This document shows, piece by piece, positions 770 to 17,483 of a stretch of 32,000 nt of DNA. The stretch is from assembly GCA_028710695.1 (NCBI GenBank), contig JAQTTP010000003.1, forward strand, positions 69,285 to 101,284, given 5' to 3'. Within the stretch, counting starts at the first letter, position 1; each line of letters starts with the position of its first letter. Position numbers and translations under genes: made by a program. The notes beneath the pieces are model-generated. The model saw only the letters and a program-made list of their open reading frames with translations, searched no databases and was not told where the DNA came from. The DNA is from Candidatus Iainarchaeum sp. GTDB lineage: Archaea; Iainarchaeota; Iainarchaeia; Iainarchaeales; 0-14-0-20-30-16.

Positions 770-823
770 AAGCTTTTTAATACCTATAATTATATATATA
801 CAGCGATTATCTCTGGTGTTTTT
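770..823 (+). promoter_or_regulatory. Promoter / 5' region of giant gene 1
   Basis: aagctttttaatacc (770-784) resembles the aaacctttataaatacc box upstream of ftsZ. It is followed by a (TA)n tract, cagcgat, and ggtgtttttATG. Parts of this are shared with the giant gene 2 and 17139 gene upstream regions. Confidence 0.5.
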
Positions 824-3800
824 ATGGGCTTAAGGGACTTTTATTTTGGTTTAGAAGATAAATACTATAAAATGATCGATAAACTTGATACTATTTTTCC
901 TGCACATGCGATTGTGGATAGAATAGATAAAGTAATGCCTTCAATGATCCTGTTCTTTATTTTATTTGTAGTTATAATTGTTCTAATAATTTGGGCTGTA
1001 ATTCCGTCCTATGCTCAAATAAATGTTTCTTTCTTTAATGATGGCTTGAGTTTGAAGGAAAAAATCCCTTTTAGTATGTATATTGGGGATGAAAACTACT
1101 CCTTTGTTTCTGACGGAGGGTCAGCAATAGTAAAAATACCAAAAAGTGATCTGTATAGAATAAAAGTTGATACTTCTAAGTATTCAATAGACAAAGATTA
1201 CTCTTTTAGTGATGAAATAAAAGTTTTATTAGATAAAAAGAAAAAAAATATTCCAATACAAATTTATTTTAAATCTGGATATTCTGATGTAGAATCCGCA
1301 AGCGCAATATTTGATTGTGATAATATTTCAATACCGGATTCTGAAGCAAGTAAAGAAACAAATAATGGATATATTGAGATAACTGTGCCAGAAGATTGTG
1401 GAATTTTGAATATTTCTGCAAGTGCAGAAGGTTATAATTCTAAGAATGATGTTTGTGATTCAACTTCTTGTGTAATTAATTTTGAAAGTGCTACAAGCGT
1501 TAGTGATAATGGAAAAACAAATATTCCGACTGCAAATATAGTTGTAAAAATTGCAGATAATTTGGGCTCAAAAGATGGACAGGTAACTATTTATGATTCT
1601 TCTGATTTGATAAACCCTGTTGAAACAGGATATTCTTTAAACGGGTATTATAACTCTAAAGCTTTGGCTGTTGGGGGCTATAAAGTTGCTGTTAATGTTG
1701 GAACTTATTTGCCACAAACAAAAACAATAGTTTTGACTGAAGCAGGAATGAATGTTGATTTCATGGTTATGAAAAACACATTAGGAAATGTATTATTAAA
1801 AGTTGATGAAGAAACAGAATTTTCATATAAGTTGAAAGATTTAAATAATAATATATTGGATTCTGGAAATAGTGACAAAGAAGTTGCATTCCTTCCTGTA
1901 TTTGAGTACGGAAAATACCTGATTGATTTGACTCCAGATAGTAATGAATTTGGAGTAATCTCAAATGAGCAAGTTGAATTTAAAGAAGGCACTTCAGAAA
2001 TTACCTTGGATTTGAAAGAGATAACTTCTTTTAACGCTGTTTTAGTTAAATTGCATGTAATTGATGAATCAGAATCTCCAATACAAGGCGCAAAAGCATT
2101 TGTGCAAGATTTGTTTAGCGGATTTGAAGTGTTTAGTTATAACTTCCCAGAAACTGATGAAAATGGAGACACTCAACTTCCCATTACTGAAGAAGGGGCT
2201 TACTCTTTTAGAGTTTACAAAGGTTATTCAGAAGGAATGAGCGAGCAAGTAACAATTACTTTTGAGCCAGGAACTGAAATGCCAGAAGAAGAGTTGGATG
2301 TTGTAATTTATTTGGGAAATGGAAGTTTTAATATAACTGTTTTGGATGAATTAGATTATGTTGTGCCATTTGCACAAATTGATTTTTATACAAAAGGACT
2401 GACAAAAAAATCAGGAACAAAATTAACTGATAATGCTGGAAAATTATTATTTTCATTAAAAGCAGGAACAGAAAAATTCTTTGTGGCATCTAAAGAAGGC
2501 TATATGCCATTCTATAGTGAAGCAAGGTTTTTAACTCCTGCAAATATTTGGGATATAAATGCAAATTTAGAACCACAAAAACTAAAAGAGGATGATGAAA
2601 AAGCAAGAGTTGAATACTTGGGTGTATTTGATGCTCTTGGCGGAGAACCAACTAATTTCGAAGTTGATAAAGCAGTATATTTGGGTTATGATATCCACCT
2701 TTACACTGATGTGGATGAAATGAACTTCGAATATACTACTGGAAAAGAAACAACAACTGTAGAACAAGATTCTTTATTTATTTTTGATAGTAGTTCTTCA
2801 TCACAAGTGGATTCAATGTATGAAGATCTGGAAAAAACAATTTACACTGAGGATAAAGGAAAAATATTAACTGCAAAATGGACTACTGGATTGGATTCTG
2901 CAAAAGTGGAAAAAGGAATTTATAGGATCTATGTGAAAGTAATGGTTAGAAATGATAGCTCAGTATCTTTGTACGAACCATTGAATATAAAATGGAAATT
3001 ATATTTGGATGAAAAGTTAAATTCAAGCGAAGAAAAAGAATATTTCTTAGGAAGTAGTTTGGATTGTAGTGATATGTTTTGTGCAAAAACATCTTTATTG
3101 GACATTGAAAACCAAATCTATGTTGAAAATATTGGAAATGTAAATAAAAATGAACAAAAATATCCTTTAGTAATTGGAAAGAAGTATAAAACTGAATTCA
3201 CCTTAATGAACGGAATAACTGCAAGCGATGGAGAAATTGAAAATGGATACTTGAAAGCACACACAGCAACAAGTTCAGATACAAGTTTCATGGCTGTTGA
3301 AAATGATGTTGATAAATATAATTTCTATCAATTTTCAAATATATCTTTGAGTGGACCAAACAGCGAGAGCCAATATTATGGCGCCGCAAAAACAATTTTA
3401 GTAGATAAATATAATTTCACAAAATTCTTTGCAAATAAAACAATTTCTGGAAGCTTTAATTTAATTCCAACTTATGATAATGGGAATTACATTAACTTTT
3501 GGGTTATAGATTCTGATAAACAAGTTCCAGTAAGGGGGGCTCCAGCATTTAATTATTGGTTTGTGCCTGATGCACCACACTCTCTGAGCATAAAACTATT
3601 CCCTAATACTTTGTTAGTGCCAAATAAAGTTCAGAATTTGAAAGTGTATGTTTATGATGAACTTGAAAGTGTTGTAAAAGACGCAAAAGTAGTTGTATTA
3701 AAGAAAGCACCTAATGACTCAGTATACAAAACTGTGCAAGGTTGTAATAACTTAACAACTGATTATGAGGGCAAAGTAGTTTGTGAACTTCCGCCTTTTG

Positions 3801-6800
3801 AACCTAATACCTTTATACAAGTGTTGGCTTACAAAGAAGGATACAAGAGCTACAAGCATAATGATTTATTGCCTGATTTGAAAGTTGTGGAAGAAATAAT
3901 TTCTTTTAATCCTGCGAAATTGGATATTACAATTTCATATCCTAAAGAAAAAGCAGTGGTTGCAGATTTGACAATTGCAAATGCAAGTGCACAGGATTTA
4001 ATAATAAACAATATTGATTTGCAATTTGATAAATATTCTGAAAATTCTAAATTCCTTTTGAACTGGGAAGCAATGGAAGCTTACTTTGAGTCAGAATATA
4101 AAGGAAAAGTTATTTATGGAATTGAAGAAGATAAAGGAGTAAATGAAACAATTTTGCAAAACTTCTTTAAGGTAATAGCAAATGACACTTTTGATAAGAG
4201 TGTATATGCTGATAAAATTGGCGGAATAATAAAAGTAACTTTGGATACAAGTCCAGGAACTGTAACTTTGGATATTCCTTTTTCAATAAAATTCAAATTA
4301 GATTCTTATCCTGAAAATGCAGGAGAGTGTTTGAAGATTTCAATGCTAGAAAAAGATTTCTATATTGAAAAAGCAACAAACACAGAAATCGAAATGATAA
4401 ATACTTGTTTGTTAGATTCTGAAAAATTAACTCCTGCAATATTTGATAAATTATTTTTGTTGCTAACTTTAGAAGATGGAAGTTATAGTATTGTGAATTA
4501 TAGTTTAACAATACCTGACAAAGTTTCAAAGAATGTTGATATCGGAGTTCCTGCTTTACTTCTTGAAAATCTGAAAACAGATGTAACAAAACCAGATATG
4601 ACTGGGTTCTTGGGAATGACTCCTAAGTCAGTAAAAGGAAACCAAAAAATTGGAATTAAATTAATGGGTTATGTGACAACGGAATCTGGCCCAGCAAAAC
4701 TTGAATCTAATACAATATCAATTAATGTAAATACTGTTGAGTTAGCAAATTGTATTGGGGTTTACAATGACAACGGCGAAAAAATAGACAGAATAGATTT
4801 TGGTGTGTTTAGTAGTATAGAATATTTGGCGACAGCAGAATCAATAAATAATAAAGTTCATGGTCCATCAACAGAAATAGAAATAAAGAACGAATGTTCT
4901 GGATCTTTGTTGTATATAAGAGCATGTAAAGATAATGAAAATAATTTTAGTCCGGGTTGTGGAAATGAAAACAGCGATGCAAAACTTTCATTCTCTGTTG
5001 AAGACTTCACAAAAGGAATTGAATTGGCTGGTGGCGCAAGCCAAAAAGTAGAGATTTATAGGCCATCAATACCTGGTGCATATGCTTTAGATCTGTGGGT
5101 AAAAACAAAAGACCAATGGGGCTATAAAAAGATTTATGATGTTAAAACAAATGTAAAAACAACAACCGCATTTGGATACTTTAGTTATAATCCATTCTTG
5201 CCTATGTTTGATCTGAATACTGATATTACTCCTATGACAAATGGAGACGAATTTGAGTCAGATATAATGTACCTGTTCAATAGAGATTTATGGGTTTCAA
5301 AGATGAGTGATTTAGAGACTCTAGAAAAAATAGCAGAATGTGATACTGGCGGCTCTGGATGTTGGAATTCTTTAGATAGATTAGATCTGAGCTCTGGACT
5401 TGGTGACGATGGAGATAGTGTAGACAATTCAGAAACTGCGAGAAAAGCAGTATTCTATAGTGGAGTGGGAGTTGCAGGTGTTGGAGTTATTATTTTGATT
5501 GGTGTTGCTCTGTGTGCATCTTCTGTGCCAGTAGCCGGTTGGATTATTGGTGGTGCCGCGGCCATTGCTGCAGGGACATTTGCAATAATTTCTGCATTGG
5601 CTCCGGATGACTTTGAACAAATAACAGAATATCACTTGTTTGATATGGTTGGGGAAGATATTGCTCTTGATGCTGTGATTTATAGTCAAACTGATAAGAA
5701 AACTTATAATTGGCTGGATGGTACTTCAATGGATCCCGTAAAGTTGACGAGCTTGTTTGGAGAGCGGTATTATGATCTGTATTATGTTAATAAAGAAGTT
5801 GCTGGGTCTGTAGGATTTGCAGGCGGAGACCACAAGAAAGATTTGTGGTTTACTGTGTATTGTGGAACTGAATATGAGCCAGTTGTAGATGCAATTGTAA
5901 TAAACGACATAAAAAAAGAAGTTTGTGGCTGGCCTGAAGATGAACCTTTTGTTGTGAATGGTTCTGATGTTGAATTTAGACCAGATTGTTCTGATGCAGG
6001 ATTCTTGGACGGATTTGAACTACATTCACATGTTTATGTTCCTTGTGTTCTAAAACCAAAGAACTGGGTATATGAACAATTCAAAGGTGTAGATTATGGT
6101 TTGCCAAATACTGGTTTGGCAAGAGTAAAATATACTACAAAAGATTTGAAGCCAGGATATAATTACTTTGATGTTGATATGAATGTTATTGGGCTTTTGG
6201 ATATAGATCCAAAAGAAGTAAAGTTTAGAGTTTCTTTGTACAACCCTTTATCTGAAGAAGAAAAAATTCTTCCTCTTGGAGACTCTTGTAAGAATCTAAG
6301 TGGAGAGATTATTGGTTATACTGGTGAAAAAGCAAGGCCAAAACTAAAGTTTGTATGGGATTGGCAATCACAGGGGTCTGTTTTGAGCCCATATGAAGAT
6401 ATGAACTTTTGTAATACAGATAACTATTGTGACTCAACTCAATTCATGATGAATATGTTCAATAGAATAAATACATTTAATGATGAAATTTTGGATTTGA
6501 GTAAGAGCAATGATATGGATTTGCCGAAAACAAATCCTCAACCAGAAACACTTAAACCAGAGTATGACTACGATCCTGCAAAAGCAGAATCTCTTGGAGT
6601 TAAGTCTGTAAAACTAGAATTTACTAATTCAAACCTTTTGTATTTGAAAGTATCAAAAGATGTTGATGTAAATGTAAGTAAAATAAGTGTAATAGTTGGT
6701 GGGGCAGATGGGTCTTCTGGAGATATGGCTGTATCTTCTCAAAATCCAAATGTGTTTACTTATACCATATCTGATCAACCAGTTGAAGAATACAAAGATT

Positions 6801-8062
6801 TAGATGGAAAGAAGTATTCAATCATTTTGAAAATATATTCCGGAAATGAATCCGGGTTGTTGCCTGTGAATGTAACGTTAACATATATTCCAGAAGTACC
6901 TGCAAAGCCAATAAACGTACCTTTGTCAACAGAAATAATGGATGGTGCAATGGCTTTATCTAAATGGTTCTGGGATACTAATATGAACTTAGATGATGCT
7001 ACATCTGACACTTTGTTTGATGCACAAAAGAAGATATATTTCTTGGCAAACATAATGAAAGATGGATTTACAGAAGACTTCTTTAATGACTTTGTAAATT
7101 CATGTAATAGTGAATTCTTTGTGTGTCCAAGTGAAGTAAAAGATAGTTTTATGGCTCTTATGGAAGAAGGGCGTTTGAAAGTAGTTAATGTAGATGGCAC
7201 AAACAAATTAAATGGCCCCGGAAAGTATGTTGTAAGAACTATAATTGATTATAAGAATACAGACCTAGAAATTAAAGATGCAAATATAATAATAATTTTA
7301 GAGAAAGTTGAGCCACCAATACAAGATAATATTTTGTATTATATGCCTCTGGATGGTCCTATTGGAATAAGTGATTATAGTGTTGATAGACAAGGCTATG
7401 GTGTTGACTTCTCTGGAGCAACAATTGACCTTTTTAAGCTTGGAAATTTAGCAAAGAAATTGACAGTAAACACAACATCTAATCCAATAAATACTGTGAA
7501 TGTAGAATCAAATTATGATTTTGCTTCTGCTAACAAAATTGCAAGAGGCAGAGTTTTAGGAATAAATACTTTGGGCGACCAACAAGTGTTTGTGAACTTT
7601 GTTCCAATGAATCAAACAAAGTTTAACTTTGAACTAACTCCAGAAACAGATAAAGATACAAAATTCTGTTATGAAGTAGAACTTGATGACCAGATAATGA
7701 AAGGTCCAGATTCCTTGCTGCCGTTCTTTGCAAAAGATCCTGAAGCAAAAGATTTCACAGGACAAATGATGGTAGATAACTACCCTAAATTTGCAGAGGC
7801 AGGAGTTTGTGGAGATCAAGCTGGATTGAAGTATAGCTTAGAATCAGTAATGAGTTCTGATCCAATAGGTCTTTACACTTATGTGTATGCTTTGAATAAC
7901 ACAAATGTAAAAGTGACCAATAGTAGTTATGACAATACAGAAAGTTTGTCTGGAAAAACATTAAGTAGTGTATTTGATGATATTGCTGCAGGAAGGCTGT
8001 GTATAAATTCCACAAGCCAGACAATGGATGTATTTTGGAATGAATATGCTCAACAAAATTAA
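824..8062 (+). CDS. Giant membrane-anchored surface protein 1 (2412 aa), family unknown
   Basis: Single uninterrupted 7.2-kb ORF. N-terminal ~40 aa are hydrophilic, then a hydrophobic helix (MILFFILFVVIIVLIIWAVI). It has repeated segments with the carboxypeptidase-regulatory-like pattern, e.g. KLHVIDESESPIQGAKAFVQD...TDENGDTQLPITEEGAYSFRVYKGY. There are many N-x-S/T sequons and an internal Gly/Ala-rich double hydrophobic segment at aa ~1542-1593. The Cys-containing C-terminal region is colinear with the next gene. Confidence 0.9.
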   Translation: MGLRDFYFGLEDKYYKMIDKLDTIFPAHAIVDRIDKVMPSMILFFILFVVIIVLIIWAVIPSYAQINVSFFNDGLSLKEKIPFSMYIGDENYSFVSDGGSAIVKIPKSDLYRIKVDTSKYSIDKDYSFSDEIKVLLDKKKKNIPIQIYFKSGYSDVESASAIFDCDNISIPDSEASKETNNGYIEITVPEDCGILNISASAEGYNSKNDVCDSTSCVINFESATSVSDNGKTNIPTANIVVKIADNLGSKDGQVTIYDSSDLINPVETGYSLNGYYNSKALAVGGYKVAVNVGTYLPQTKTIVLTEAGMNVDFMVMKNTLGNVLLKVDEETEFSYKLKDLNNNILDSGNSDKEVAFLPVFEYGKYLIDLTPDSNEFGVISNEQVEFKEGTSEITLDLKEITSFNAVLVKLHVIDESESPIQGAKAFVQDLFSGFEVFSYNFPETDENGDTQLPITEEGAYSFRVYKGYSEGMSEQVTITFEPGTEMPEEELDVVIYLGNGSFNITVLDELDYVVPFAQIDFYTKGLTKKSGTKLTDNAGKLLFSLKAGTEKFFVASKEGYMPFYSEARFLTPANIWDINANLEPQKLKEDDEKARVEYLGVFDALGGEPTNFEVDKAVYLGYDIHLYTDVDEMNFEYTTGKETTTVEQDSLFIFDSSSSSQVDSMYEDLEKTIYTEDKGKILTAKWTTGLDSAKVEKGIYRIYVKVMVRNDSSVSLYEPLNIKWKLYLDEKLNSSEEKEYFLGSSLDCSDMFCAKTSLLDIENQIYVENIGNVNKNEQKYPLVIGKKYKTEFTLMNGITASDGEIENGYLKAHTATSSDTSFMAVENDVDKYNFYQFSNISLSGPNSESQYYGAAKTILVDKYNFTKFFANKTISGSFNLIPTYDNGNYINFWVIDSDKQVPVRGAPAFNYWFVPDAPHSLSIKLFPNTLLVPNKVQNLKVYVYDELESVVKDAKVVVLKKAPNDSVYKTVQGCNNLTTDYEGKVVCELPPFEPNTFIQVLAYKEGYKSYKHNDLLPDLKVVEEIISFNPAKLDITISYPKEKAVVADLTIANASAQDLIINNIDLQFDKYSENSKFLLNWEAMEAYFESEYKGKVIYGIEEDKGVNETILQNFFKVIANDTFDKSVYADKIGGIIKVTLDTSPGTVTLDIPFSIKFKLDSYPENAGECLKISMLEKDFYIEKATNTEIEMINTCLLDSEKLTPAIFDKLFLLLTLEDGSYSIVNYSLTIPDKVSKNVDIGVPALLLENLKTDVTKPDMTGFLGMTPKSVKGNQKIGIKLMGYVTTESGPAKLESNTISINVNTVELANCIGVYNDNGEKIDRIDFGVFSSIEYLATAESINNKVHGPSTEIEIKNECSGSLLYIRACKDNENNFSPGCGNENSDAKLSFSVEDFTKGIELAGGASQKVEIYRPSIPGAYALDLWVKTKDQWGYKKIYDVKTNVKTTTAFGYFSYNPFLPMFDLNTDITPMTNGDEFESDIMYLFNRDLWVSKMSDLETLEKIAECDTGGSGCWNSLDRLDLSSGLGDDGDSVDNSETARKAVFYSGVGVAGVGVIILIGVALCASSVPVAGWIIGGAAAIAAGTFAIISALAPDDFEQITEYHLFDMVGEDIALDAVIYSQTDKKTYNWLDGTSMDPVKLTSLFGERYYDLYYVNKEVAGSVGFAGGDHKKDLWFTVYCGTEYEPVVDAIVINDIKKEVCGWPEDEPFVVNGSDVEFRPDCSDAGFLDGFELHSHVYVPCVLKPKNWVYEQFKGVDYGLPNTGLARVKYTTKDLKPGYNYFDVDMNVIGLLDIDPKEVKFRVSLYNPLSEEEKILPLGDSCKNLSGEIIGYTGEKARPKLKFVWDWQSQGSVLSPYEDMNFCNTDNYCDSTQFMMNMFNRINTFNDEILDLSKSNDMDLPKTNPQPETLKPEYDYDPAKAESLGVKSVKLEFTNSNLLYLKVSKDVDVNVSKISVIVGGADGSSGDMAVSSQNPNVFTYTISDQPVEEYKDLDGKKYSIILKIYSGNESGLLPVNVTLTYIPEVPAKPINVPLSTEIMDGAMALSKWFWDTNMNLDDATSDTLFDAQKKIYFLANIMKDGFTEDFFNDFVNSCNSEFFVCPSEVKDSFMALMEEGRLKVVNVDGTNKLNGPGKYVVRTIIDYKNTDLEIKDANIIIILEKVEPPIQDNILYYMPLDGPIGISDYSVDRQGYGVDFSGATIDLFKLGNLAKKLTVNTTSNPINTVNVESNYDFASANKIARGRVLGINTLGDQQVFVNFVPMNQTKFNFELTPETDKDTKFCYEVELDDQIMKGPDSLLPFFAKDPEAKDFTGQMMVDNYPKFAEAGVCGDQAGLKYSLESVMSSDPIGLYTYVYALNNTNVKVTNSSYDNTESLSGKTLSSVFDDIAAGRLCINSTSQTMDVFWNEYAQQN

Positions 8063-8183: not shown

Positions 8184-8213
8184 CCTATAAGAATTATAAT
8201 TATTGGTGATTGT
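8184..8213 (+). promoter_or_regulatory. Promoter / 5' region of giant gene 2
   Basis: cctataagaattataattattggtgattgtATG parallels cctataattatatatata...ggtgtttttATG upstream of gene 1. Confidence 0.45.
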
Positions 8214-11200
8214 ATGAGTTTTAGAGAGCTATATACGAAAATAGAAGATAAATATTATGCGATGTTGGATAAGATAAATCAAGTTATACCTATCCACAAG
8301 CTTACTGACCAAATTGACAAGGTAATGCCCTCGATGATATTCTTTTCTGTATTCTTTTTAGTGATAATTGGACTTATTATTTGGCTAATAGTTGCTAGTG
8401 TTGGATCTTCAACAATCACTTTTGAATTTTATTCTAATGGAACACTTGCATCCGGAGAATTTAATGTAACTTTCTCTTCCGAAGGTGGAGAACAAATTGC
8501 TCTTGTGAAGAATGGAATTGCCTTTGGAAATTATGATATGGGGGATTTTGTAACTGTGAAAATAAAAGAGCCTTATACTTTTTCAAAAACTTATGAAATT
8601 AAAAGCGAATTAATGAAAATTGACTTGCCAGGATTAGACAAACTTGCTTTGAAGGAAGCAGAAAAAAAGAATAAAGAAATTTCTATTTATTTGTATGATG
8701 GCACATCTGGGTCTCTAGTTAAAGAAAAAGCGATTGTTAGCGCAAGTTGTGAGGATTTTAGTAAAGAAATAGAAGTAACTGGAAACACAAAACTTGCAAT
8801 TCCTGATAATTGTTCTTATGTTGATTTGTTAGCAACTGCTGACGGATATTTACAATCTAAAAAAAGTTGTGATACCGCTTTGTGTAAAATATTTATGGAC
8901 AAAAAAGGAACAACTACTCCAACAACTGTTGTTCAATCAATTCCAAAAAATAAAGTTGTTGTGTATGTAAAAGATAATAAAGGAACTTCTCTGGAAGGGT
9001 TTGATGTAAAAATTACTGGGGTTGAATCAATACAAGATGTTTTGAACCAAGCAAAAACAAATGCTTTTGGAAGTTACACTTTTGAAGATATTACTGTTGG
9101 AAATTATAAATTGTATGTGTCTGATCCTTCTGGAACTTTGACTACTGTAAGCAAAGATTTAATTGTTGTATCTGGGCCTCCAGTTATTGCAGATATTACT
9201 ATGGAAAAGCCGCCTTTGGGATATTTTAATGTAAAAGTGAATACTGAGAATACAGGTGGATTTGCATTAGCTACTTTGTATGTGAAAGATGTAAATGATA
9301 ATTATCTTGGAACTGTGGACATAAATACTGGTGTAGAATACAAGATAGGTGTTTATGAAAAAGGAAAATATATTTTTAATGTAATTCCTGTAACTGGTTA
9401 TGATGAAAATTATTCAATTGTTACTGAAGAAAGAGAATACGATTTGCAAAGCGGAGATAAAAAAGTTGATTTAGTTTTGAAAGAATTAAAATATTATGAA
9501 AATACAAAAGTTAATTTGAAAGTTGTAAAAGAAAAAGATGATGGGTCTGAGGAACCATTGCCAAATATGAAAATAATAGTTGAAAATGACGAAGGCTGGC
9601 AAATAGAATTGCCTGCTGACAAAACAAAAACAGATGTAAATGGTTCTGTGAGTTTTATTTTGCCATCTGGAGTTTACATAGTTCATGCTTATAATTATTA
9701 TTTTACTGGAGAAACAAATTTACAATTATTGGACACTCCTGGTGCAACAGAATTGCCTGAAACAGATGCAAAGATTGCTGTTCAGATTGGAAAAGCAAAA
9801 ATAAAAGTTTCTGTTAAAGACGAAGATGGAAAGGATTTGACAGATGTGAAAGTAGATATCTATATGGATTCCAATTTTTTTGGACCAATGTTTATAAGTC
9901 AAGAAAAATACAAAGAGGTTCAGGTTGAGGCATATCATAGTTATTATGTAAAGGTAACAAAAGAAGGATATTTGAATTATTATAGTCCAGAGTTGGTTTT
10001 GAAGAAAGACCAATTAATGGATGAGAAAGTAATTTTGTATAATAAATTAGAACACTTAAACTCAGATCCTGAAATGATTTATGTTGGGGCATATAAAGAT
10101 CAAGAATTAAAAACAAAGCTTGATAAAATAGATCAAGAGAATGAGTTTTATTATGTGTTTGATTTAGTTGTTCCAGAATTTAGTGAAAAATTGTATGAAA
10201 TTTCTGGGGTTAAAGTAACTGGTGTTGCAGGAAACAAAAATTTGCCAGTTTTAGAAAGCGATTTAGTTTTAAAGAACGTATTTGCGTCTGGAAAAACACA
10301 TTTATTTAGTACAATAACTGGAACTTCTTTAGCAGAACAAGGTGAAGATTTTACTTATACTGCAAAATCTTTTACAAGCGAGTTTAATGGGGGCTCTTAT
10401 GTTGCAAGAATGGTTGTGCATTTGAGATCTACTGATATTCCTCAAATAGGGGATAAATTATTCTTTTATTATAAATTAGATATAGATACTAAACAAAATG
10501 GCTCTTTTAATTTGCCAATACCAACTGACGCAGAATATTATGAATTAATTAAGTTCTTGGGAAAACGAGAACTTTGTGAAAATGAAGTTGTTTGTGTTGA
10601 TACTTACTTAGATGGAATGGCAACAAGTAGTTTGCCTGGCGGAAGCGAAAATAAAGTGGAATTATATTCTGGAAAGCAGAATAATATTCTTGTAAATCTT
10701 ACAAAGGGTGATGAACTTCCAACTGAACTTGAAGCAAGTAAGTTTACAGTATTCAATTCTACAATTTCTTCTGTAGAGAACTTTAATTCTTTGAAAGACT
10801 TCTATGTTGATTTGGAAGATATGAGTTTAGTGCACGACAAAATAACATCTACAAAGCCAATAGAAATTGACTCACAAACAGCACCGGTATTTGTAAAAGA
10901 AGCATCAATAAATAATTATAAAATTAATACTACTTTGAAGTTTGATTCAAAAATTGAATTGGTGGAACCAGAGAATTCAAAACTTTATTTTAATTTTGAT
11001 ACTACTAATGAAGTTGAGCAAGTATATGTTGATTTAGAAACAATGAACGATGACGAACCATTAAAGTTAGAAGGGCTGCCAGAAGGAGATCTTTTGATTC
11101 CTGGAATTGAAAACTCTTTTGATGTAATTGTGAAATCTGGAGAAGATAAGATTGGGGCTGCAATAATAAAAATATATTTCTTTGATGGAATGAATTGGTC

Positions 11201-14200
11201 TTTAGAAAATACTTTTACTGCAGGAAATGATGGTGTTGCAAAAATTACTATAAAGCCACACACACAAGGTGAAGAAGTAAAAATATCTGCTGAAAAAGAA
11301 AGTTATTTGCCTTGTGCAAAGATTTTATTAGTAAGTACTGATTTGTTTGAAATAAACAAAAGCAAGAATGAAACAAAAATAGTTTATCCAAAAGATTTAA
11401 ATCCAGTTGCAGGAAAATTGGGAATAAAAAACAAAACAAATATTGATTTTGAAGTTTATAATGTGGAATTTGTGGGTTCTTCAAATTTGGGTTTATTGAT
11501 GAATGTAGAAAAAATGGAAAACTACCTTAAAGATGCAAAACCATTGTTAATTCCAAATGAAGAAACAATAGGATTTAAAATGCATTATAATGATTTGCCA
11601 GTACAAACTTTGACAGATTCAGTTGCTCTTGATGATGTTCATGCAATGTTATCTGTTAGGCCAAAAGGATCAGAAAGTGAAATTGTTTTGGATGTTCCAA
11701 TAACTTTGGAAATAACTTTTAATAATCAGCCTTTGGAAGAGAATTGTGTTTCTGTTGAATTTACAAAAGATTTAAGTAAACTATCTGGGGAAACAGAGTT
11801 TAGTGCTGTATTCCTGAACGGTGTTGCGCCAGAAACTTATTTGATAATAGAAAACTCTTGTACAATTGAATTGAACGAAGGCCAAGGAAGTGTTGCGGAT
11901 TATGAATTTGCTGACTTTTTGTTAGATGCGTCATTTTCTAAGATGGCAAATAATATAATGGGCGGATTCACAATTAATATTGAAGGTGCAAGTGATAATA
12001 CAAAAACAGAAAATTATTCTTTGTTTAAAGTTGATACTGGCGAAGTAATAAAATTGCTTTCTCCAAAGAAAAAGAGCAATGACAAATATATTTACAAAAT
12101 CACATTTGAAAAACTTGGAGATTATGAATTTGGAAAGAACGGAACAAATGTAGAATTTAAATTTATTCCAAAGTACCAAGGTGTTGGAAACCAAACGATC
12201 TCTTTTGGAGAGAAGAAACTTTCAATGAACGTTTCTGAAAAGAAGATATCTGATTGCTTATATTTCGGGTTGAATACAAATGTTAATACCCAATCTGTTG
12301 CTACCGACACTGAAGGAGTGGCTACTGAAGAAGGTTCTGAACAGCAAGTTATTATGCCAATTAGTATAGACGAACAACAATATTATTTGAAAGGTGGAAA
12401 TGGAATATTAAGATTGGGTTATGATTATGTTGATGAGACTGTGGGCCCAGAATCTTTGAATGCGAATTTGACTTTGGATAACACAAGTAACTTGCAAATA
12501 ACTAGGCCAGGTAATGATTATGTTGTAAACTCCCTGCCGCTTTTAATTAAGAACACTTGTGGAATTGATTTGGAAATAAAATTGTGTAAAGAAGATGATG
12601 AATATTGTAGAATTCCTGATGTAGGATTTATGCAATTTGATACTTTATATGGTGTTGAAGGATTTGAGTTATATAATACTCCTTTAACTATTGGTGCGGA
12701 TAAAGAAATACAATTCTCCTTATTGAGGCCGCAGGAATTCTCCGGTGCTGTTGTACTTCCTTTGTATGTAAAAAACACAACAGGAGAATATGGCTTGGCA
12801 AAAGAAGCAAAGGTATCAGTTCAATCTTCATTGTTTAATCCATACTTTGTGTTAAATCCATTTGTTGAAGATGGAAACATGGACATTACTTTCTACAAGA
12901 ATGAATATTATCCAGATATGACTGGTTGGTCAGATCCAATAGAGAAACAGTTATTGACCAACGACACAGATTCAAGCTCATATCTGCGATTGATCCAAAT
13001 AACTCCTGGTCCAATTTTTAATTATGATGGGGACGATGATTCTGGAAATATTTTAGATTCTTTTGAAGCACTGAACCCAAAGTCAATTGACTATACGGAT
13101 GATAGTTCTGATGTTGACCAAAGTCTTAGTGAAAAAGTTGTTGGGGTTGTAGGCGGTATGATTAGTGGCGGCGTAGATATATTGTACTATATAAAAGAAG
13201 TAGAATATAATCTTCCACAATGGGCTATAATAAAAATAATGGCAAATAGATTCCATAAAGGGTCTTTGAGTGATTTAGATGATGATGTGGCCGCAACAGC
13301 AGAATATAGAATTTGGTCAGAAAGCTTGCCAATACAAAATATATTAAATAATAAACAGATTTTTGACGGTTTTAATAATGATTGGTGTGAGCTTGAAGAT
13401 GATTCTTGCTTCTTTAATTATGAAGGCCCAGTTCAAAAAATTGCAGATATTTTGCGTGAAACTGTCGGAACAAAGTACCCTTATTTTACATCAATAAGTG
13501 TTGCAAGGTTGGAAGGAGATTGTGGTTGGTCAAATGTTATTGCCTATGCACAAGGGTTTTGTCCACAGGGGTATGAACTTGCAAAAATAGAACTTTTTAG
13601 AAAAGATGGCGGAACTGTTGATGGCAGAGATAATACTTTCTCTCAAGTTACTGAAGGCAAGACAACAAAATACTTATATGGTGGCTCTGTAAACTTTGAA
13701 GATAAATATATTAATGAAGAGTCAGATACTGGCTATCAGATGATGACTATTTGTAGGCTTCCTAGATCAGAGTTTGGAGAAGTAGATCGTGCTGTTGGGG
13801 GAACAATGAAATATAGTTCTTTTGGCAGTGGGTCAATATTTGATTCCTCAGGAATAGAAAATATTGTAAAAAGTAAGATCCAAGCAACAGACATATTTAA
13901 TTGCACGGACTGCACTTCTGAATTGAGAGAATTTTTATTTGATGTATATGATGCAGAGGCAGCAGATATGGATTGTGAAATAACACCGCCAGGTTATTTT
14001 GATGCGGGTGATAATGATGAATATGAGATATACCAGAATAATTCATCTGGATGCCCCGGATTTGACTACTCAAAAATAAACTTATTAAATGAGTTATACC
14101 AAGGCAAGGAAAATGATGTAGACAATTATAAGGCAAGGACTGCGGCAGTAGTAACTAGTATAGTAACAAACTCAGGGAAAACGACATCTGGAGAACTTGC

Positions 14201-15590
14201 TTATGCAGCAAATATGGCTTTTGCAGGTAGTGATACTTTCTTTGGTTATATTGATGATGCATATGGTATTAATTTTGATGGGCTAATAATAGAACTTTGT
14301 AAAGATGGTTCAAAGACAAAAAATAATGGTACTTGTAGTCATGCAACTCAATTACGTGCTAGCTTTGGACCGTATAATTATAATTCCATCTCTATAACTG
14401 CTGCTGAATTTGATGGCTTAAATTCAAACATAAGACTATATCTTGAGCCAAAGACAATGAAGAAAGACTTTGCATTCTATAAGAAAGTAAATTCATGCCC
14501 ATATGGTGGGTATACTGGCCCAGAAGTAAAGCCAACAATAAATTATACTTGGGCAGAAAGTGCAATAAAAAAAGATTTCTGTGTTGTTGAGGGTGAAGAG
14601 AATTATGCAGATGTAAATGCTTGTGATTTAGTTCAATTCTCTAAAGTGATTTCAAAACAATTTTCAGATGATATGGAACAAAAGCATTTTACTGTAAAAC
14701 TGATGTATGACAACTATTCTGAAAGTGCAATAAATTCTTTAATAGAATGGTCTTTCTTTGAACACATAAAAGATTTAAGAATCCTGAATTATGATGGAAG
14801 CCCGGTGGGAGAAATTGGGCCTGGAATTTACAATGTAGATTTAATACGTGATGAAAATGTATTGGATGTGTACTTATCATATCTGACAAGTTATGGGCCA
14901 GATCATATATTCTATAGGATGCCTGTAGACAATGTTGGTACTGGGGCAATCCCTGGAATTGGAACTTCAATGAACTATCCAATAAATTATGATGGCTTTG
15001 GAAGCTTTAGTCAGATTAAAGATGACGTTTCTACCTTAAAAGAATATTCTGTTTCAAACCACGATTTGAAAACAATAAATACAACTCAAAAAGGAACTGT
15101 GTTTGCAGGATACTTTAATGATGGCTTGATATATTGGAATAACATGGATGTATATCTGCTGACTGCACACTTGGGAACTGACGAGAATAAAGAAATTTTG
15201 CTAACTGCTCCAGAATATGATACGGAAATCTATGAAGTTCTAAAATCTGGCTGGATTTATGAAGATGGTGAAGACTACTACTATGCTGAAAATGCGGGAT
15301 TTGGGTTTGGAGTGGTTGACACAGATAATGGCAAGAAGTTAAAGATAAGTAATGCAAGCGGATACAATAGAACTGTAAAGAAAATATTATTCTATCCACA
15401 AGGAAGCGCGTTGGATTTGCCAGAACAGGATGATGTAACTCTTACACAGCTTGATGTTGAGCCAATATACAGTATAACAGACATATTCAAAGGATTGGAA
15501 AATGAAAACATTTGTTATAGGGCTTTGGAAGACGGAAGTGAATATTATTATAACCCTTTGAAATTATTAGATATAATACAAACGCAATAA
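8214..15590 (+). CDS. Giant membrane-anchored surface protein 2 (about 2458 aa from ATG 8214), paralog of 824..8062
   Basis: The ORF track starts at TTG 8178. ATG 8214 gives MSFRELYTKIEDKYYAMLDKINQVIPIHKLTDQIDKVMPSMIFF..., which aligns residue-for-residue with the N-terminus of gene 1. It has the same TM anchor, beta-sandwich modules (e.g. KIKVSVKDEDGKDLTDVKVDIY...VKVTKEGYLNYY) and a colinear C-terminal module. Confidence 0.9.
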   Translation: MSFRELYTKIEDKYYAMLDKINQVIPIHKLTDQIDKVMPSMIFFSVFFLVIIGLIIWLIVASVGSSTITFEFYSNGTLASGEFNVTFSSEGGEQIALVKNGIAFGNYDMGDFVTVKIKEPYTFSKTYEIKSELMKIDLPGLDKLALKEAEKKNKEISIYLYDGTSGSLVKEKAIVSASCEDFSKEIEVTGNTKLAIPDNCSYVDLLATADGYLQSKKSCDTALCKIFMDKKGTTTPTTVVQSIPKNKVVVYVKDNKGTSLEGFDVKITGVESIQDVLNQAKTNAFGSYTFEDITVGNYKLYVSDPSGTLTTVSKDLIVVSGPPVIADITMEKPPLGYFNVKVNTENTGGFALATLYVKDVNDNYLGTVDINTGVEYKIGVYEKGKYIFNVIPVTGYDENYSIVTEEREYDLQSGDKKVDLVLKELKYYENTKVNLKVVKEKDDGSEEPLPNMKIIVENDEGWQIELPADKTKTDVNGSVSFILPSGVYIVHAYNYYFTGETNLQLLDTPGATELPETDAKIAVQIGKAKIKVSVKDEDGKDLTDVKVDIYMDSNFFGPMFISQEKYKEVQVEAYHSYYVKVTKEGYLNYYSPELVLKKDQLMDEKVILYNKLEHLNSDPEMIYVGAYKDQELKTKLDKIDQENEFYYVFDLVVPEFSEKLYEISGVKVTGVAGNKNLPVLESDLVLKNVFASGKTHLFSTITGTSLAEQGEDFTYTAKSFTSEFNGGSYVARMVVHLRSTDIPQIGDKLFFYYKLDIDTKQNGSFNLPIPTDAEYYELIKFLGKRELCENEVVCVDTYLDGMATSSLPGGSENKVELYSGKQNNILVNLTKGDELPTELEASKFTVFNSTISSVENFNSLKDFYVDLEDMSLVHDKITSTKPIEIDSQTAPVFVKEASINNYKINTTLKFDSKIELVEPENSKLYFNFDTTNEVEQVYVDLETMNDDEPLKLEGLPEGDLLIPGIENSFDVIVKSGEDKIGAAIIKIYFFDGMNWSLENTFTAGNDGVAKITIKPHTQGEEVKISAEKESYLPCAKILLVSTDLFEINKSKNETKIVYPKDLNPVAGKLGIKNKTNIDFEVYNVEFVGSSNLGLLMNVEKMENYLKDAKPLLIPNEETIGFKMHYNDLPVQTLTDSVALDDVHAMLSVRPKGSESEIVLDVPITLEITFNNQPLEENCVSVEFTKDLSKLSGETEFSAVFLNGVAPETYLIIENSCTIELNEGQGSVADYEFADFLLDASFSKMANNIMGGFTINIEGASDNTKTENYSLFKVDTGEVIKLLSPKKKSNDKYIYKITFEKLGDYEFGKNGTNVEFKFIPKYQGVGNQTISFGEKKLSMNVSEKKISDCLYFGLNTNVNTQSVATDTEGVATEEGSEQQVIMPISIDEQQYYLKGGNGILRLGYDYVDETVGPESLNANLTLDNTSNLQITRPGNDYVVNSLPLLIKNTCGIDLEIKLCKEDDEYCRIPDVGFMQFDTLYGVEGFELYNTPLTIGADKEIQFSLLRPQEFSGAVVLPLYVKNTTGEYGLAKEAKVSVQSSLFNPYFVLNPFVEDGNMDITFYKNEYYPDMTGWSDPIEKQLLTNDTDSSSYLRLIQITPGPIFNYDGDDDSGNILDSFEALNPKSIDYTDDSSDVDQSLSEKVVGVVGGMISGGVDILYYIKEVEYNLPQWAIIKIMANRFHKGSLSDLDDDVAATAEYRIWSESLPIQNILNNKQIFDGFNNDWCELEDDSCFFNYEGPVQKIADILRETVGTKYPYFTSISVARLEGDCGWSNVIAYAQGFCPQGYELAKIELFRKDGGTVDGRDNTFSQVTEGKTTKYLYGGSVNFEDKYINEESDTGYQMMTICRLPRSEFGEVDRAVGGTMKYSSFGSGSIFDSSGIENIVKSKIQATDIFNCTDCTSELREFLFDVYDAEAADMDCEITPPGYFDAGDNDEYEIYQNNSSGCPGFDYSKINLLNELYQGKENDVDNYKARTAAVVTSIVTNSGKTTSGELAYAANMAFAGSDTFFGYIDDAYGINFDGLIIELCKDGSKTKNNGTCSHATQLRASFGPYNYNSISITAAEFDGLNSNIRLYLEPKTMKKDFAFYKKVNSCPYGGYTGPEVKPTINYTWAESAIKKDFCVVEGEENYADVNACDLVQFSKVISKQFSDDMEQKHFTVKLMYDNYSESAINSLIEWSFFEHIKDLRILNYDGSPVGEIGPGIYNVDLIRDENVLDVYLSYLTSYGPDHIFYRMPVDNVGTGAIPGIGTSMNYPINYDGFGSFSQIKDDVSTLKEYSVSNHDLKTINTTQKGTVFAGYFNDGLIYWNNMDVYLLTAHLGTDENKEILLTAPEYDTEIYEVLKSGWIYEDGEDYYYAENAGFGFGVVDTDNGKKLKISNASGYNRTVKKILFYPQGSALDLPEQDDVTLTQLDVEPIYSITDIFKGLENENICYRALEDGSEYYYNPLKLLDIIQTQ

Positions 15591-15623: not shown

Positions 15624-16043
15624 ATGGATATAACAATGTTGATAGGGCTAGGAGAGTTCTTTGGGGACTTTGTCTTCATAATAAAGATCTTTGCCTTTAT
15701 TGCCATTCTTGGGTTTGTTAACAGATATATCCAGAGCAAGTTAATAAAAATAATAATGGTCGTGTTTATGGGTTATTTTATCCTTATTGCAAACTGGGCT
15801 GTATTTGGAACTATGTTTGTGATATATACTTTATTGGGAATTGGTGTTGCAGGAATACTAACAGATTTCTTCTTTGCTGGTCAGAATATTATTGGTGAAG
15901 GTGAACAAGAAAGGCAGATGGCCCAAGAAAAAGAGCGGGAAGAAATGGAGAGAAGAAGAATGCTTGAGGATGCACGGCCAGTATCTAGTAGTGCGAGTTT
16001 GCATAAAAGGCCCCCAATTCCACCTGCACTTATGAGAAGGTAG
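15624..16043 (+). CDS. Small polytopic membrane protein with charged/Pro-rich C-terminal tail (139 aa)
   Basis: Starts 33 nt after the giant gene 2 stop. It has 3-4 hydrophobic helices, then GEGEQERQMAQEKEREEMERRRMLEDA...KRPPIPPALMRR. Confidence 0.75.
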   Translation: MDITMLIGLGEFFGDFVFIIKIFAFIAILGFVNRYIQSKLIKIIMVVFMGYFILIANWAVFGTMFVIYTLLGIGVAGILTDFFFAGQNIIGEGEQERQMAQEKEREEMERRRMLEDARPVSSSASLHKRPPIPPALMRR

Positions 16044-16047
16044 AACT

Positions 16048-16407
16048 ATGGCGATTAAATTAAATGAAAAGGGTGCAATAATAATTGCAATTGGCATTGC
16101 GTTTGTAGTAATAATACTGCTGCCAATTGTGTTTATGCAAATCTTTTCAATTTCAAAGCCTCTATTTCAGATTATAATTGCCTTTGTTATAATGGGGTAT
16201 ATACGAAATGTTGGAATAGAAGGAATACCATTTTGGACTTTGTCTGCTATTCTAATATACTTTTTAGCTTGGAAATATGTTGAGATTGCTTCAAGCTTTT
16301 ATGTTTTGATGTTATTAATGGGTTTAGGATTTACTTCATCTTTGATCTGGGGTTCAATATTCTTTACTGGGCTTTTGAAAAATAGAAAAATGGCGAAGCA
16401 AGGATAA
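16048..16407 (+). CDS. Small 4-TM membrane protein (119 aa)
   Basis: 4-nt gap after the previous gene. Four hydrophobic segments and a short basic C-terminus (KNRKMAKQG). Confidence 0.75.
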   Translation: MAIKLNEKGAIIIAIGIAFVVIILLPIVFMQIFSISKPLFQIIIAFVIMGYIRNVGIEGIPFWTLSAILIYFLAWKYVEIASSFYVLMLLMGLGFTSSLIWGSIFFTGLLKNRKMAKQG

Positions 16408-16441
16408 CTATAAAAACAAAATTGTGTTATATAGTGATAAT

Positions 16442-16687
16442 ATGAATTGGATTCTGTTAGTTGCTGATGTAGGAACATTTAAAGGGGATGTATGGTTAGC
16501 CCTGTTCCTTTACGTAAGTATAATGGTTTTTGCATGGGCAAAAGGAAAGCTTGGAAGCCCAGAAGTAGCTATTTTGTATACAATCATAATGATGTTTTTG
16601 GTGTTTTATCAGCACGATGTTCTAATTTGGCTTGCCTTGGGACTATACCTTTACCAGACCTATGGTAAGGAGATATTCAAGGGCTGA
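16442..16687 (+). CDS. Small 3-TM membrane protein (81 aa from ATG; track uses GTG 16424)
   Basis: The ORF is almost entirely hydrophobic (VWLALFLYVSIMVFAWA, VAILYTIIMMFLVFY, VLIWLALGLYLY). ATG 16442 is preferred over GTG 16424 but the choice is unresolved. Confidence 0.65.
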   Translation: MNWILLVADVGTFKGDVWLALFLYVSIMVFAWAKGKLGSPEVAILYTIIMMFLVFYQHDVLIWLALGLYLYQTYGKEIFKG

Positions 16688-16692
16688 TCTGA

Positions 16693-17031
16693 ATGGAAAT
16701 TTTCTCCTTTATAATCTCGATGTTTGTAATGATGGTTGCATCGCAATATGGGTTATATTGGCTTATGATAATAGTTGCGGGTGTTGCTGCTTTCATGTCT
16801 AAGGAGAAGAAAGTACTGATAATTTTTGTGATTTATATTGCAATCCTGTATTTCATAAAGGGCACTGCCTATGAATCTTATGGAATTTATGTTGCTGCAG
16901 TAATCATTGTGGTTTATTTAATCTTGAATAAAGGGGATTCTGGTGGTGAAGAAGAAGCACTGGGCGGAATGGGAGATCAATATGGTGATCTTCTGAAGGG
17001 CCTTGGCGGCGGTGGCGGCGGGGGAATGTAA
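16693..17031 (+). CDS. Small 4-TM membrane protein with acidic/poly-Gly tail (112 aa)
   Basis: 5-nt gap after the previous gene. Four hydrophobic segments, then DSGGEEEALGGMGDQYGDLLKGLGGGGGGGM, encoded by a locally GC-rich tract. Confidence 0.75.
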   Translation: MEIFSFIISMFVMMVASQYGLYWLMIIVAGVAAFMSKEKKVLIIFVIYIAILYFIKGTAYESYGIYVAAVIIVVYLILNKGDSGGEEEALGGMGDQYGDLLKGLGGGGGGGM

Positions 17032-17075
17032 ATTCCTGAAGGAATTGTGAAGGAAAACCCCCCAAAAAGACCAAG

Positions 17076-17138
17076 AAACCTTTATAAAGCTATGTTATAT
17101 TGATTATATATATTATATATAGAGCGATGTGAAGTATC
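17076..17138 (+). promoter_or_regulatory. Promoter region of the 17139 gene
   Basis: aaacctttataaa (17076-17088) is identical to the 13-mer upstream of ftsZ (23761-23773). It is followed by a (TA)n tract and gagcgat, mirroring tatatatacagcgat upstream of giant gene 1. Confidence 0.5.
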
Positions 17139-17483
17139 ATGAAGTTATTAATTGCTTTGTTATTAGGAATATTGGTATTTGGATTGATGAACAACTCATC
17201 CCTGTTAAGTATAGGTCTAATTTTGTTAGGAGTTTACCTATTGTTTAACATAGTACAGGGTGCAAAGAGCAATGCAAGTACTTTGAAGAAGTTTGTTGAT
17301 GTTAAGGAAATTAACTTCGACAATCTAAAATGCCCTGAGGGTATTGTGGACAATATGTTGAAGGATGCCGGAAAAGTTACAAAGAATATGCTTAACGGAA
17401 ACAAGACTGAAAACATAGGAAAGGCATTGCATAACGGAACTTATAATGCTTTACAAGACGTTGGTGCTCCTTTCAAGAACTAG
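17139..17483 (+). CDS. Small membrane protein, two N-terminal TM helices plus ~70-aa soluble domain (114 aa)
   Basis: MKLLIALLLGILVFGLMNNSSLLSIGLILLGVYLLFNIV, then a hydrophilic Lys/Asn-rich domain. It has its own promoter and is followed by T-runs. Confidence 0.7.
   Translation: MKLLIALLLGILVFGLMNNSSLLSIGLILLGVYLLFNIVQGAKSNASTLKKFVDVKEINFDNLKCPEGIVDNMLKDAGKVTKNMLNGNKTENIGKALHNGTYNALQDVGAPFKN

Follow-up and report, generated by a model that had tools for sequence, protein, structure and literature searches.

The window analysed here, a 32,000-nucleotide stretch of the archaeon Candidatus Iainarchaeum sp. (contig C19:69285-101284 of an assembly of 0.9 Mb with 32 % G+C and 86 % completeness), contains two very long neighbouring genes on the forward strand, both encoding giant surface proteins. 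From its open reading frame (ORF) and translation, GP1 (824..8062, +) encodes a protein of 2412 amino acids (aa), and GP2 (8214..15590, +), the last giant of the array, one of 2458 aa. Both carry a match to the Pfam family PF13620 (CarboxypepD_reg), which in GP1 lies at residues 411-479 (Pfam scan). The subject of this work is the N-terminal piece that the two proteins have in common, here called the handle. It comprises residues 1-39, predicted to be cytoplasmic, of GP1 (824..940, +; delimited from the translation, the logo, the AlphaFold2 model and the internal repeat) and of GP2 (8214..8330, +; from the translation, BLASTP and the profile). In both proteins residues 40-59 follow as a membrane helix, at 941..1000 (+) in GP1, where it was taken from the AlphaFold2 model and is read as a putative uncleaved signal-anchor, and at 8331..8390 (+) in GP2, where the gap-free alignment to GP1 places the same apolar run. 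The contrast between handle and ectodomain, the purifying selection, the distribution, the secondary structure, the apolar length and the charge bias reported below were all computed.

An earlier sequence-only reading of the window had described the two N-termini as identical at about half of the first ~60 positions, including an invariant IDKVMPSMI just before the helix, and the ectodomains as far more diverged. Its translations agree exactly with ours, and in a gap-free BLASTP alignment of residues 1-57 of GP1 and GP2, 32 of the 57 positions are identical, the nine-residue run IDKVMPSMI among them. Over the complete first alignment of 648 residues the identity is 27 %, and beyond it the two proteins give short, weak BLASTP segments only; the collinear first ~650 residues and C-terminal blocks are common to both. 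When the six-frame translated genome was searched with a 65-residue GP1 peptide, GP2 was found at E=1.2e-19 and two giants upstream of the window at E=6.3e-17 and 7.9e-11. The handle profile scores 78.8 bits on GP1 and 73.8 bits on GP2, and the similarity of the two N-terminal sequences is far above chance. An alternative GP2 frame from TTG 8178 would add 12 residues; these have a counterpart in no relative, and ATG 8214 is therefore the correct start.

The greater divergence of the ectodomains was confirmed with a MAFFT alignment of 14 full-length proteins, in which the mean pairwise identity is 0.51 over residues 1-40 as against 0.05-0.32 in the other 40-residue windows. The windows that rank next reach 0.32, 0.30 and 0.29, and values under 0.10 prevail in much of the C-terminal half. 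GP1 and GP2 have 27 identical positions with degenerate codons; the codon differs at 15 of them, with 12.8 expected from independent draws from the codon usage of the giants, and the nucleotide identity is 64 %. As the synonymous sites of the shared stretch are saturated, it is selection that keeps the handles alike, and not recent duplication or gene conversion. The handle is under purifying selection, and its constraint is much tighter than that of the ectodomains. Handles cluster by array position and not by genome: that of GP1 has 70-76 % identity with the corresponding handle of another genome and ~50 % with that of its paralogue GP2.

Since the giant genes are tandem paralogues, the similarity might also stem from tandem duplication or gene conversion in the recent past, or be the trace of a conserved 5' RNA or regulatory element, an explanation to which we give next to no weight. 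The synonymous saturation, with a nucleotide identity as low as that found, speaks against it, as do the fact that handles resemble their counterparts in other genomes more than the paralogues of their own genome and the preservation of the peptide across two phyla and about 1000 sequence clusters. By the saturation and the wide distribution, recent duplication, gene conversion and a 5' RNA element were all ruled out.

Structure and distribution of the handle

The AlphaFold2 model of residues 1-170, computed from a 39-sequence alignment, has a mean pLDDT (predicted local distance difference test) score of 86.7, with 80-85 over the handle and 92-97 over the first ectodomain beta-sandwich (residues 63-135 of GP1; 1010..1228, +). 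In this model the GP1 handle consists of helix 1 (residues 3-24; 830-895, +) and helix 2 (residues 27-37; 902-934, +), and the membrane helix is entered through a P39-S40-(F/M)41 kink. A conserved segment of ~40 residues does stand ahead of a single long apolar helix, as had been read from the letters. The logo was drawn from 110 representatives with the commonest spacing among the 150 best-scoring matches, so that its figures are upper bounds which overstate the invariance: Y7, Y15, D35 and P39 reach 100 %, E11, D19 and S40 99 %, and P26, F41, Y28, I34 and D32 follow with 97, 94, 93, 92 and 90 %, respectively. GP1 is an exception in having H at position 28 in place of the usual Y. Y7, E11, Y15 and D19 are spaced four residues apart and therefore line one face of the helix.

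The handle also has an internal symmetry. Its columns 18-28 (L-D-K-I-D-x-K-I-P-V-Y) resemble columns 31-41 (I-D-P-I-D-K-V-V-P-S-F), and the mean BLOSUM62 column score is +2.03 at an offset of 13, compared with -2.5 to +0.86 at the remaining offsets from 4 to 16, which indicates that the handle contains a tandem 13-residue repeat with the unit D-x-I-D-x3-P-x-Y/F. A longer subtype of the handle, W-L-D-x-K-G-I-P ... E-x-x-G/N-I-P-S-F-P, occurs in GPa (a giant upstream of the window), in giants adjoining a pilin-like gene and in lineages with one or two copies, and it is probably the older form. In a Foldseek search with the AlphaFold2 model the beta-sandwich alone was matched, by transthyretin-like, CnaB and pilin-type sandwiches (best E 1.9e-3).

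In the same order, a profile built from the genome's own four N-termini detected the handle in 59 of 61 genomes, in all 27 of the high-quality ones and in 46 of 48 genera, with 2-7 matches per positive genome, mostly starting open frames of more than 1000 codons (longest 3255). For the whole phylum a profile of 39 sequences (residues 1-50) was used, and the handle was found in 195 of 201 sampled genomes (58/58 high-quality); the other orders, with genomes of 0.5-0.7 Mb, have one to three copies each. It is further present in 24 of the 31 genomes of a second small phylum, to which a genome labelled 'Micrarchaeota' belongs. Among 1.84 billion cluster representatives there were 999 matches at E<=1e-3 and 555 at E<=1e-10. 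Among the 150 matches listed, 145 begin within the first 22 residues, and the five that begin at residues 34-107 are taken to reflect start codons called too far upstream.

Carriers in named records are metagenome-assembled genomes (MAGs) of Candidatus Iainarchaeum/Diapherotrites, one 'Micrarchaeota' MAG and three contigs regarded as mis-binned. The latter (L040, L041 and L043) were deposited as Chloroflexota or Falkowbacteria MAGs. The giant genes on them are typical of the Iainarchaeota and almost the same as those in Iainarchaeum MAGs that the same studies yielded; mis-binning is probable.

The profile searches thus showed this N-terminus to be the mark of many very large surface-type proteins, both in the present genome and in relatives. 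The possibility, raised with the sequence-only reading, that the motif occurs nowhere else clearly fails, the matches being widespread. The description of the handle as a feature of both giants was right for GP1 and GP2 and too narrow for the genome, which holds five carriers and not two. The idea of a free-standing signal had to be given up. All 42 mid-size carriers (1000-2050 aa) are collinear with giant ectodomains from their first residues, with ~350-1600 residues aligned, and a portable signal on unrelated cargo is ruled out by these 42 of 42. Because all tested carriers are homologous, the handle is a family-defining N-terminal domain of one ancient family and not a signal moved between unrelated proteins. 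GP1 and GP2 themselves have what defines the giant family, namely handle and helix followed by a collinear ectodomain rich in beta-sandwiches.

Public records name the members merely 'carboxypeptidase regulatory-like domain-containing protein'. Scanned against Pfam and NCBIfam, neither the isolated N-termini nor the whole proteins gave a match to the handle, a profile search of PDB sequences gave one chance match at E=1.1, and in literature searches no description of the giant family or of the handle motif was found. At the level of sequence, the handle is a real and undescribed module which starts nearly every giant surface protein of the Iainarchaeota (DPANN).

The array and its neighbours

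Four of the five carriers of this genome were found by six-frame search to be consecutive on C19: GPa (2570-2571 aa) and GPb (2603 aa), both upstream of the window, then GP1 and GP2. The fifth, with a divergent handle, was detected by profile search from C5:50633, running off the contig end, and its remainder is the open frame that begins C19. In the array of a relative, the first giant is covered by the two pieces at residues 9-1407 and 1431-2027. The fifth giant (~3300 aa) is thus split between C5:50633-54634 and C19:1-5923, both outside the window, and corresponds to the first array giant of the genomes G022, G036 and G008. Both broken ends are low-complexity sequence rich in Asn, Tyr, Gly and Gln, which probably broke the assembly within this gene. 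In its divergent handle the internal repeat is obvious (FLDEKGIPA...FLEEKGIPA).

TATA-like A/T-rich boxes were recognised by eye at 783..800 (+), ~24 nt 5' of the GP1 ATG, and similarly at ~8185-8201 before the GP2 ATG. The presence of such a box before each giant suggests that each may have its own promoter and a leaderless or near-leaderless mRNA.

The last giant is followed immediately by a cassette of five ORFs for small membrane proteins of 139, 119, 87, 112 and 114 aa (15624..17483, +). In a search without composition correction, each of cassette genes 1-4 had one counterpart among the four small genes that come first after the single giant of L066, a genome from another phylum, and the gene order was the same. 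Under default scoring, the last giant in G022, G008, G036 and G061 is followed by homologues of one or two genes of the cassette. The cassette is syntenic with the arrays across very distant genomes, and it is a candidate partner of the handle. That its small membrane proteins read the handle as a targeting, insertion or docking signal, as the sequence-only reading suggested, is a hypothesis.

Other genes beside the arrays are reminiscent of pili. Directly before GPa, 18.5 kb before the window (C19:50806-52230), lies the gene of a 474-aa Cys-containing protein with a class III (pilin-like) signal, K-G-F-T-L-F-T-A-L. No Pfam family matches this protein, which could be a minor pilin of large size or else interact with the giants as a partner. 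Class III proteins of 470-590 aa stand beside a giant with the long handle subtype in this genome, L047, L055, G022, G008 and G036, and weaker homologues adjoin giants in L049 and G061. Such homologues adjoin a giant in every array examined but those of G063 and L066; in L066 a shorter protein of 257 aa with a similar class III signal precedes the giant.

Genes for a pilus-type ATPase, for a platform protein, for several small proteins resembling pilins and for an exosortase-family protein flank the L066 giant, and ATPase-like genes flank the arrays of G036 and G061. ATPases, platform protein and pilins were recognised by inspection of their sequences. The exosortase-family gene (PF09721) of L066 lies at L066:8595-9167, right after the pilus-type cluster. 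In the present genome, ATPase, prepilin-peptidase and exosortase-family matches lie on contigs C3 and C15, the PF09721 gene being at C3:88270-88548 and the ATPase, a weak match to PF00437 (E=5.8e-18), at C15:113296. A secretion-ATPase-like protein of 759-775 aa flanks the arrays at L066:6324-8603, G036:C1:439000-441281 and G061:C36:60337 onward, three distant genomes, and does not flank the array of this genome, whose copy is the one on C15; in the relatives it was recognised by reading a shared, conserved N-terminal block, ...DLVVLA.VYERVY.E.QTK.LKEIADL.... Between two giants a polytopic membrane protein of 143-161 aa is encoded at G022:C1:682963-683448, G036:C1:462130-462600, G061:C36:48877-49308 and L055:9503-9973, and it has no counterpart inside the array of this genome. 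Taken as a whole, the neighbourhood fits a handle partner without singling one out.

Comparison with known signals and anchors

Several properties of the region bear on its topology. In 133 relatives, the median length of the apolar stretch that follows P-S is 25 residues (10th-90th percentile 19-31). The mean number of K+R is 2.0 within the 15 residues preceding this stretch and 0.77 within the 15 that come next. The AlphaFold2 model starts the sandwich three residues past the membrane helix, and the domains that this sandwich resembles (CnaB, pilin and transthyretin-like) are extracellular. The ectodomains contain 0.87-1.47 N-glycosylation sequons per 100 residues compared with 0.61 in other long ORFs, and relative to the same ORFs they are higher in Ser+Thr (14-17 % vs 11.8 %) and lower in K+R (9 % vs 13.2 %). 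Apolar length, K+R bias, position and kind of the modelled sandwich and ectodomain composition favour an uncleaved N-in, C-out anchor.

The conclusion of the sequence-only reading that this is not a classical Sec, Tat or class III signal was upheld, as the following defining features of these classes are absent. In place of the short, positive n-region of a classical Sec signal there are ~39 residues with a median net charge of -2. The hydrophobic core of a signal peptide has 7-15 residues, and the median of 25 apolar residues found here lies outside that range. For Tat, GP1, GP2, GPa and GPb have no RR up to residue 60, and the family consensus has none either. A class III signal was ruled out for lack of a conserved Gly/Ala at -1: positions 36-38 are K/R, V/I and V/I/F, followed by P-S-F. 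In hmmscan of both N-termini at E<=10, ESPR (PF13018) and YSIRK (PF04650) were not matched and weak membrane-helix noise alone was returned, and the NCBIfam scan at E<=10 gave no match to KxYKxGKxW (TIGR03715). The arrangement is also not that of PGF-CTERM/archaeosortase substrates, as the motif is N-terminal and the C-termini of the giants have neither helix nor basic tail. What is present is a single N-proximal apolar helix of membrane-spanning length, as in type II signal-anchors.

Ordinary short signals are used in this organism as well, as indicated by the product of a minus-strand gene at 20697-22154 (485 aa, Cys-rich), which has a short classical lipobox-type signal (...LSLSGC). This protein also contains an H-E-L-V-H motif and may be a secreted zinc metalloprotease.

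In function the handle most resembles, by analogy, a type II signal-anchor with a conserved cytoplasmic domain. Type II signal-anchor proteins have a cytoplasmic N-terminal segment, one long apolar helix with more K+R before than after it, and a large C-terminal part outside, an arrangement that is predicted for the giants too. Unlike the segment of such anchors, the handle is modelled as a folded acidic two-helix domain and is the best-conserved part of a 2400-residue protein, with near-invariant Tyr and Asp/Glu, an internal repeat and about 1000 sequence clusters in two archaeal phyla.

Two bacterial systems offer analogies for a special N-terminus on giant adhesins. The ESPR, found on very large autotransporters, TpsA proteins and trimeric adhesins, is a conserved N-terminal extension ahead of the hydrophobic core, of ~25 residues, basic and aromatic, and is cleaved. 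It is similar in being specific to very large surface proteins; the handle differs in having no sequence match to it and a hydrophobic stretch of anchor length. The accessory Sec system (SecA2/SecY2/Asp1-5) exports serine-rich adhesins that have a cleaved signal of ~90 residues, and it needs a dedicated SecA2/SecY2 pair. It is alike in that giant adhesins bear a long and conserved signal of atypical form at the N-terminus and that small accessory membrane proteins are encoded alongside, whereas the KxYKxGKxW signal has no sequence match in the handle.

Class III signals resemble the handle in placing a hydrophobic helix after an N-terminal leader, and a true class III protein stands beside the arrays. 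Position 38 of the handle, in contrast, is V, I or F, or G or N in the longer subtype, without a conserved Gly/Ala, and the leader is a 39-residue folded one and not short and basic. A genomic analogy is offered by Giant1-5 of Apilactobacillus kunkeei, five consecutive genes for extracellular proteins of 3000-8000 aa that take up several percent of a small genome and have conserved ends and divergent middles (PMC12863079). These bacterial proteins are unrelated in sequence, and they have ordinary Sec/SPI signals, no transmembrane helix and attachment by C-terminal SH3b-like domains (PMC12863079).

Proposed role of the handle and its alternatives

On balance we favour the prediction that handle and helix together form a type II signal-anchor that is not cleaved and whose cytoplasmic domain binds a partner. 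The segment at 824-1012 would then comprise a cytoplasmic helix-turn-helix of ~39 residues, built on the duplicated D-x-I-D-x3-P-x-Y/F unit and with the Y7-E11-Y15-D19 stripe on helix 1, which would pass through the Pro-Ser-Phe kink into a membrane helix of ~25 residues. The long apolar helix, presumably brought to the Sec translocon by the signal recognition particle, would not be cleaved. The N-terminus would be kept in the cytoplasm while the chain of ~2400 residues is threaded out, so that the first beta-sandwich comes to lie at the membrane surface. On the inner face the handle would present a folded, acidic, tyrosine-rich surface to a conserved partner, by which the giants may be held or organised at the membrane. 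The N-in, C-out topology, the absence of cleavage and the existence of a partner are the parts of this picture that we infer. As its partner the downstream cassette of small membrane proteins is the first, if tentative, candidate, and its chance of being the right one is limited.

Several observations weigh against this proposal. The invariance in the logo is overstated, as noted above. The median net charge of -2 is not what a cytoplasmic flank usually has, so that the positive-inside support is weak, and the S-Y-A-Q sequence after the GP1 helix could serve as a signal peptidase site (between A and Q). A conserved N-terminal piece can, moreover, belong to a cleaved signal, as in ESPR and accessory Sec. 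As regards the cassette, none was found behind the single giant examined in G063, which belongs to another order. An array has a single cassette, whereas every giant has a handle and a genome three to seven of them.

A cleaved, extended export signal, in which the 40-residue extension tunes the targeting or translocation of a very long chain and is then removed, would account for the restriction of the handle to very large exported-type proteins. It would also give a role to the S-Y-A-Q site of GP1 and to the small membrane proteins encoded beside the arrays, which recall Asp4/Asp5, the small membrane proteins of the accessory Sec system. We nevertheless regard it as quite unlikely: the median apolar stretch has the length of an anchor, reading of the aligned relatives revealed no conserved small-residue motif past the helix, none of the ESPR, YSIRK and KxYKxGKxW models was matched, and a sandwich three residues past the helix leaves almost no c-region. 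An unlikely alternative, though one worth keeping in mind, is that the anchor is self-contained and needs no external partner. Amphipathic, Tyr-rich helices could form a 'foot' on the inner leaflet that resists the pull-out of a 270-kDa ectodomain held by one helix, and the hydrophobic moments of helix 1 (0.41) and helix 2 (0.74) and the aromatics at positions 7, 8, 14, 15 and 28 agree with this, whereas the invariant carboxylates E11, D19, D32 and D35 would not be expected on lipid headgroups without bridging cations. In addition or instead, the handles of paralogues could hetero-oligomerise, as the three to seven paralogues per genome of the order, their conserved order and the distinguishable handle subtypes might suggest. 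The other orders and the second phylum, by contrast, often have one or two carriers, and hetero-oligomerisation therefore cannot be the ancestral role.

The opposite orientation, with the handle outside, the giants cytoplasmic and P-S-F plus helix mimicking the P-G-F plus helix of archaeosortase substrates, seems very improbable. It draws on the resemblance of P-S-F to P-G-F and on the exosortase/archaeosortase-family gene (PF09721, 28.4 bits) two genes before the L066 giant; the motif stands at the opposite end of the protein from that expected and lacks a basic tail, extracellular-type sandwiches and a surface-protein composition follow the helix, and the archaeosortase-like gene of this genome is on another contig, ~5 kb from the prepilin peptidase gene. 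An N-terminal counterpart of PGF-CTERM read by the archaeosortase-like gene product was ruled out by position, orientation and the missing basic tail. A further reading, which we consider distinctly doubtful, takes the handle as the recognition element of a dedicated archaeal pathway that inserts, assembles or holds the giants and is read by the cassette and/or the pilus-like ATPase and platform proteins.

The Iainarchaeota are uncultured and have genomes of ~1 Mb, yet genomes of this order carry three to seven giant genes, and the four array genes of the present genome amount to ~30 kb, more than 3 % of its 0.9 Mb. The 40-residue cytoplasmic piece is the sole part of the giants that hardly changes, and it is therefore the most promising experimental handle on their function and mounting. 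A match over 50 residues scores 70-95 bits, which also makes the piece a sharp marker for finding and counting giant genes in metagenomes. Should the handle belong to a dedicated pathway, the Iainarchaeota and their sister phylum would have a new system for export or surface assembly that is specific to them. The handle probably anchors the giants in the membrane and docks them to a partner, and if a dedicated partner exists, it would represent a new archaeal way to anchor or assemble very large surface proteins.

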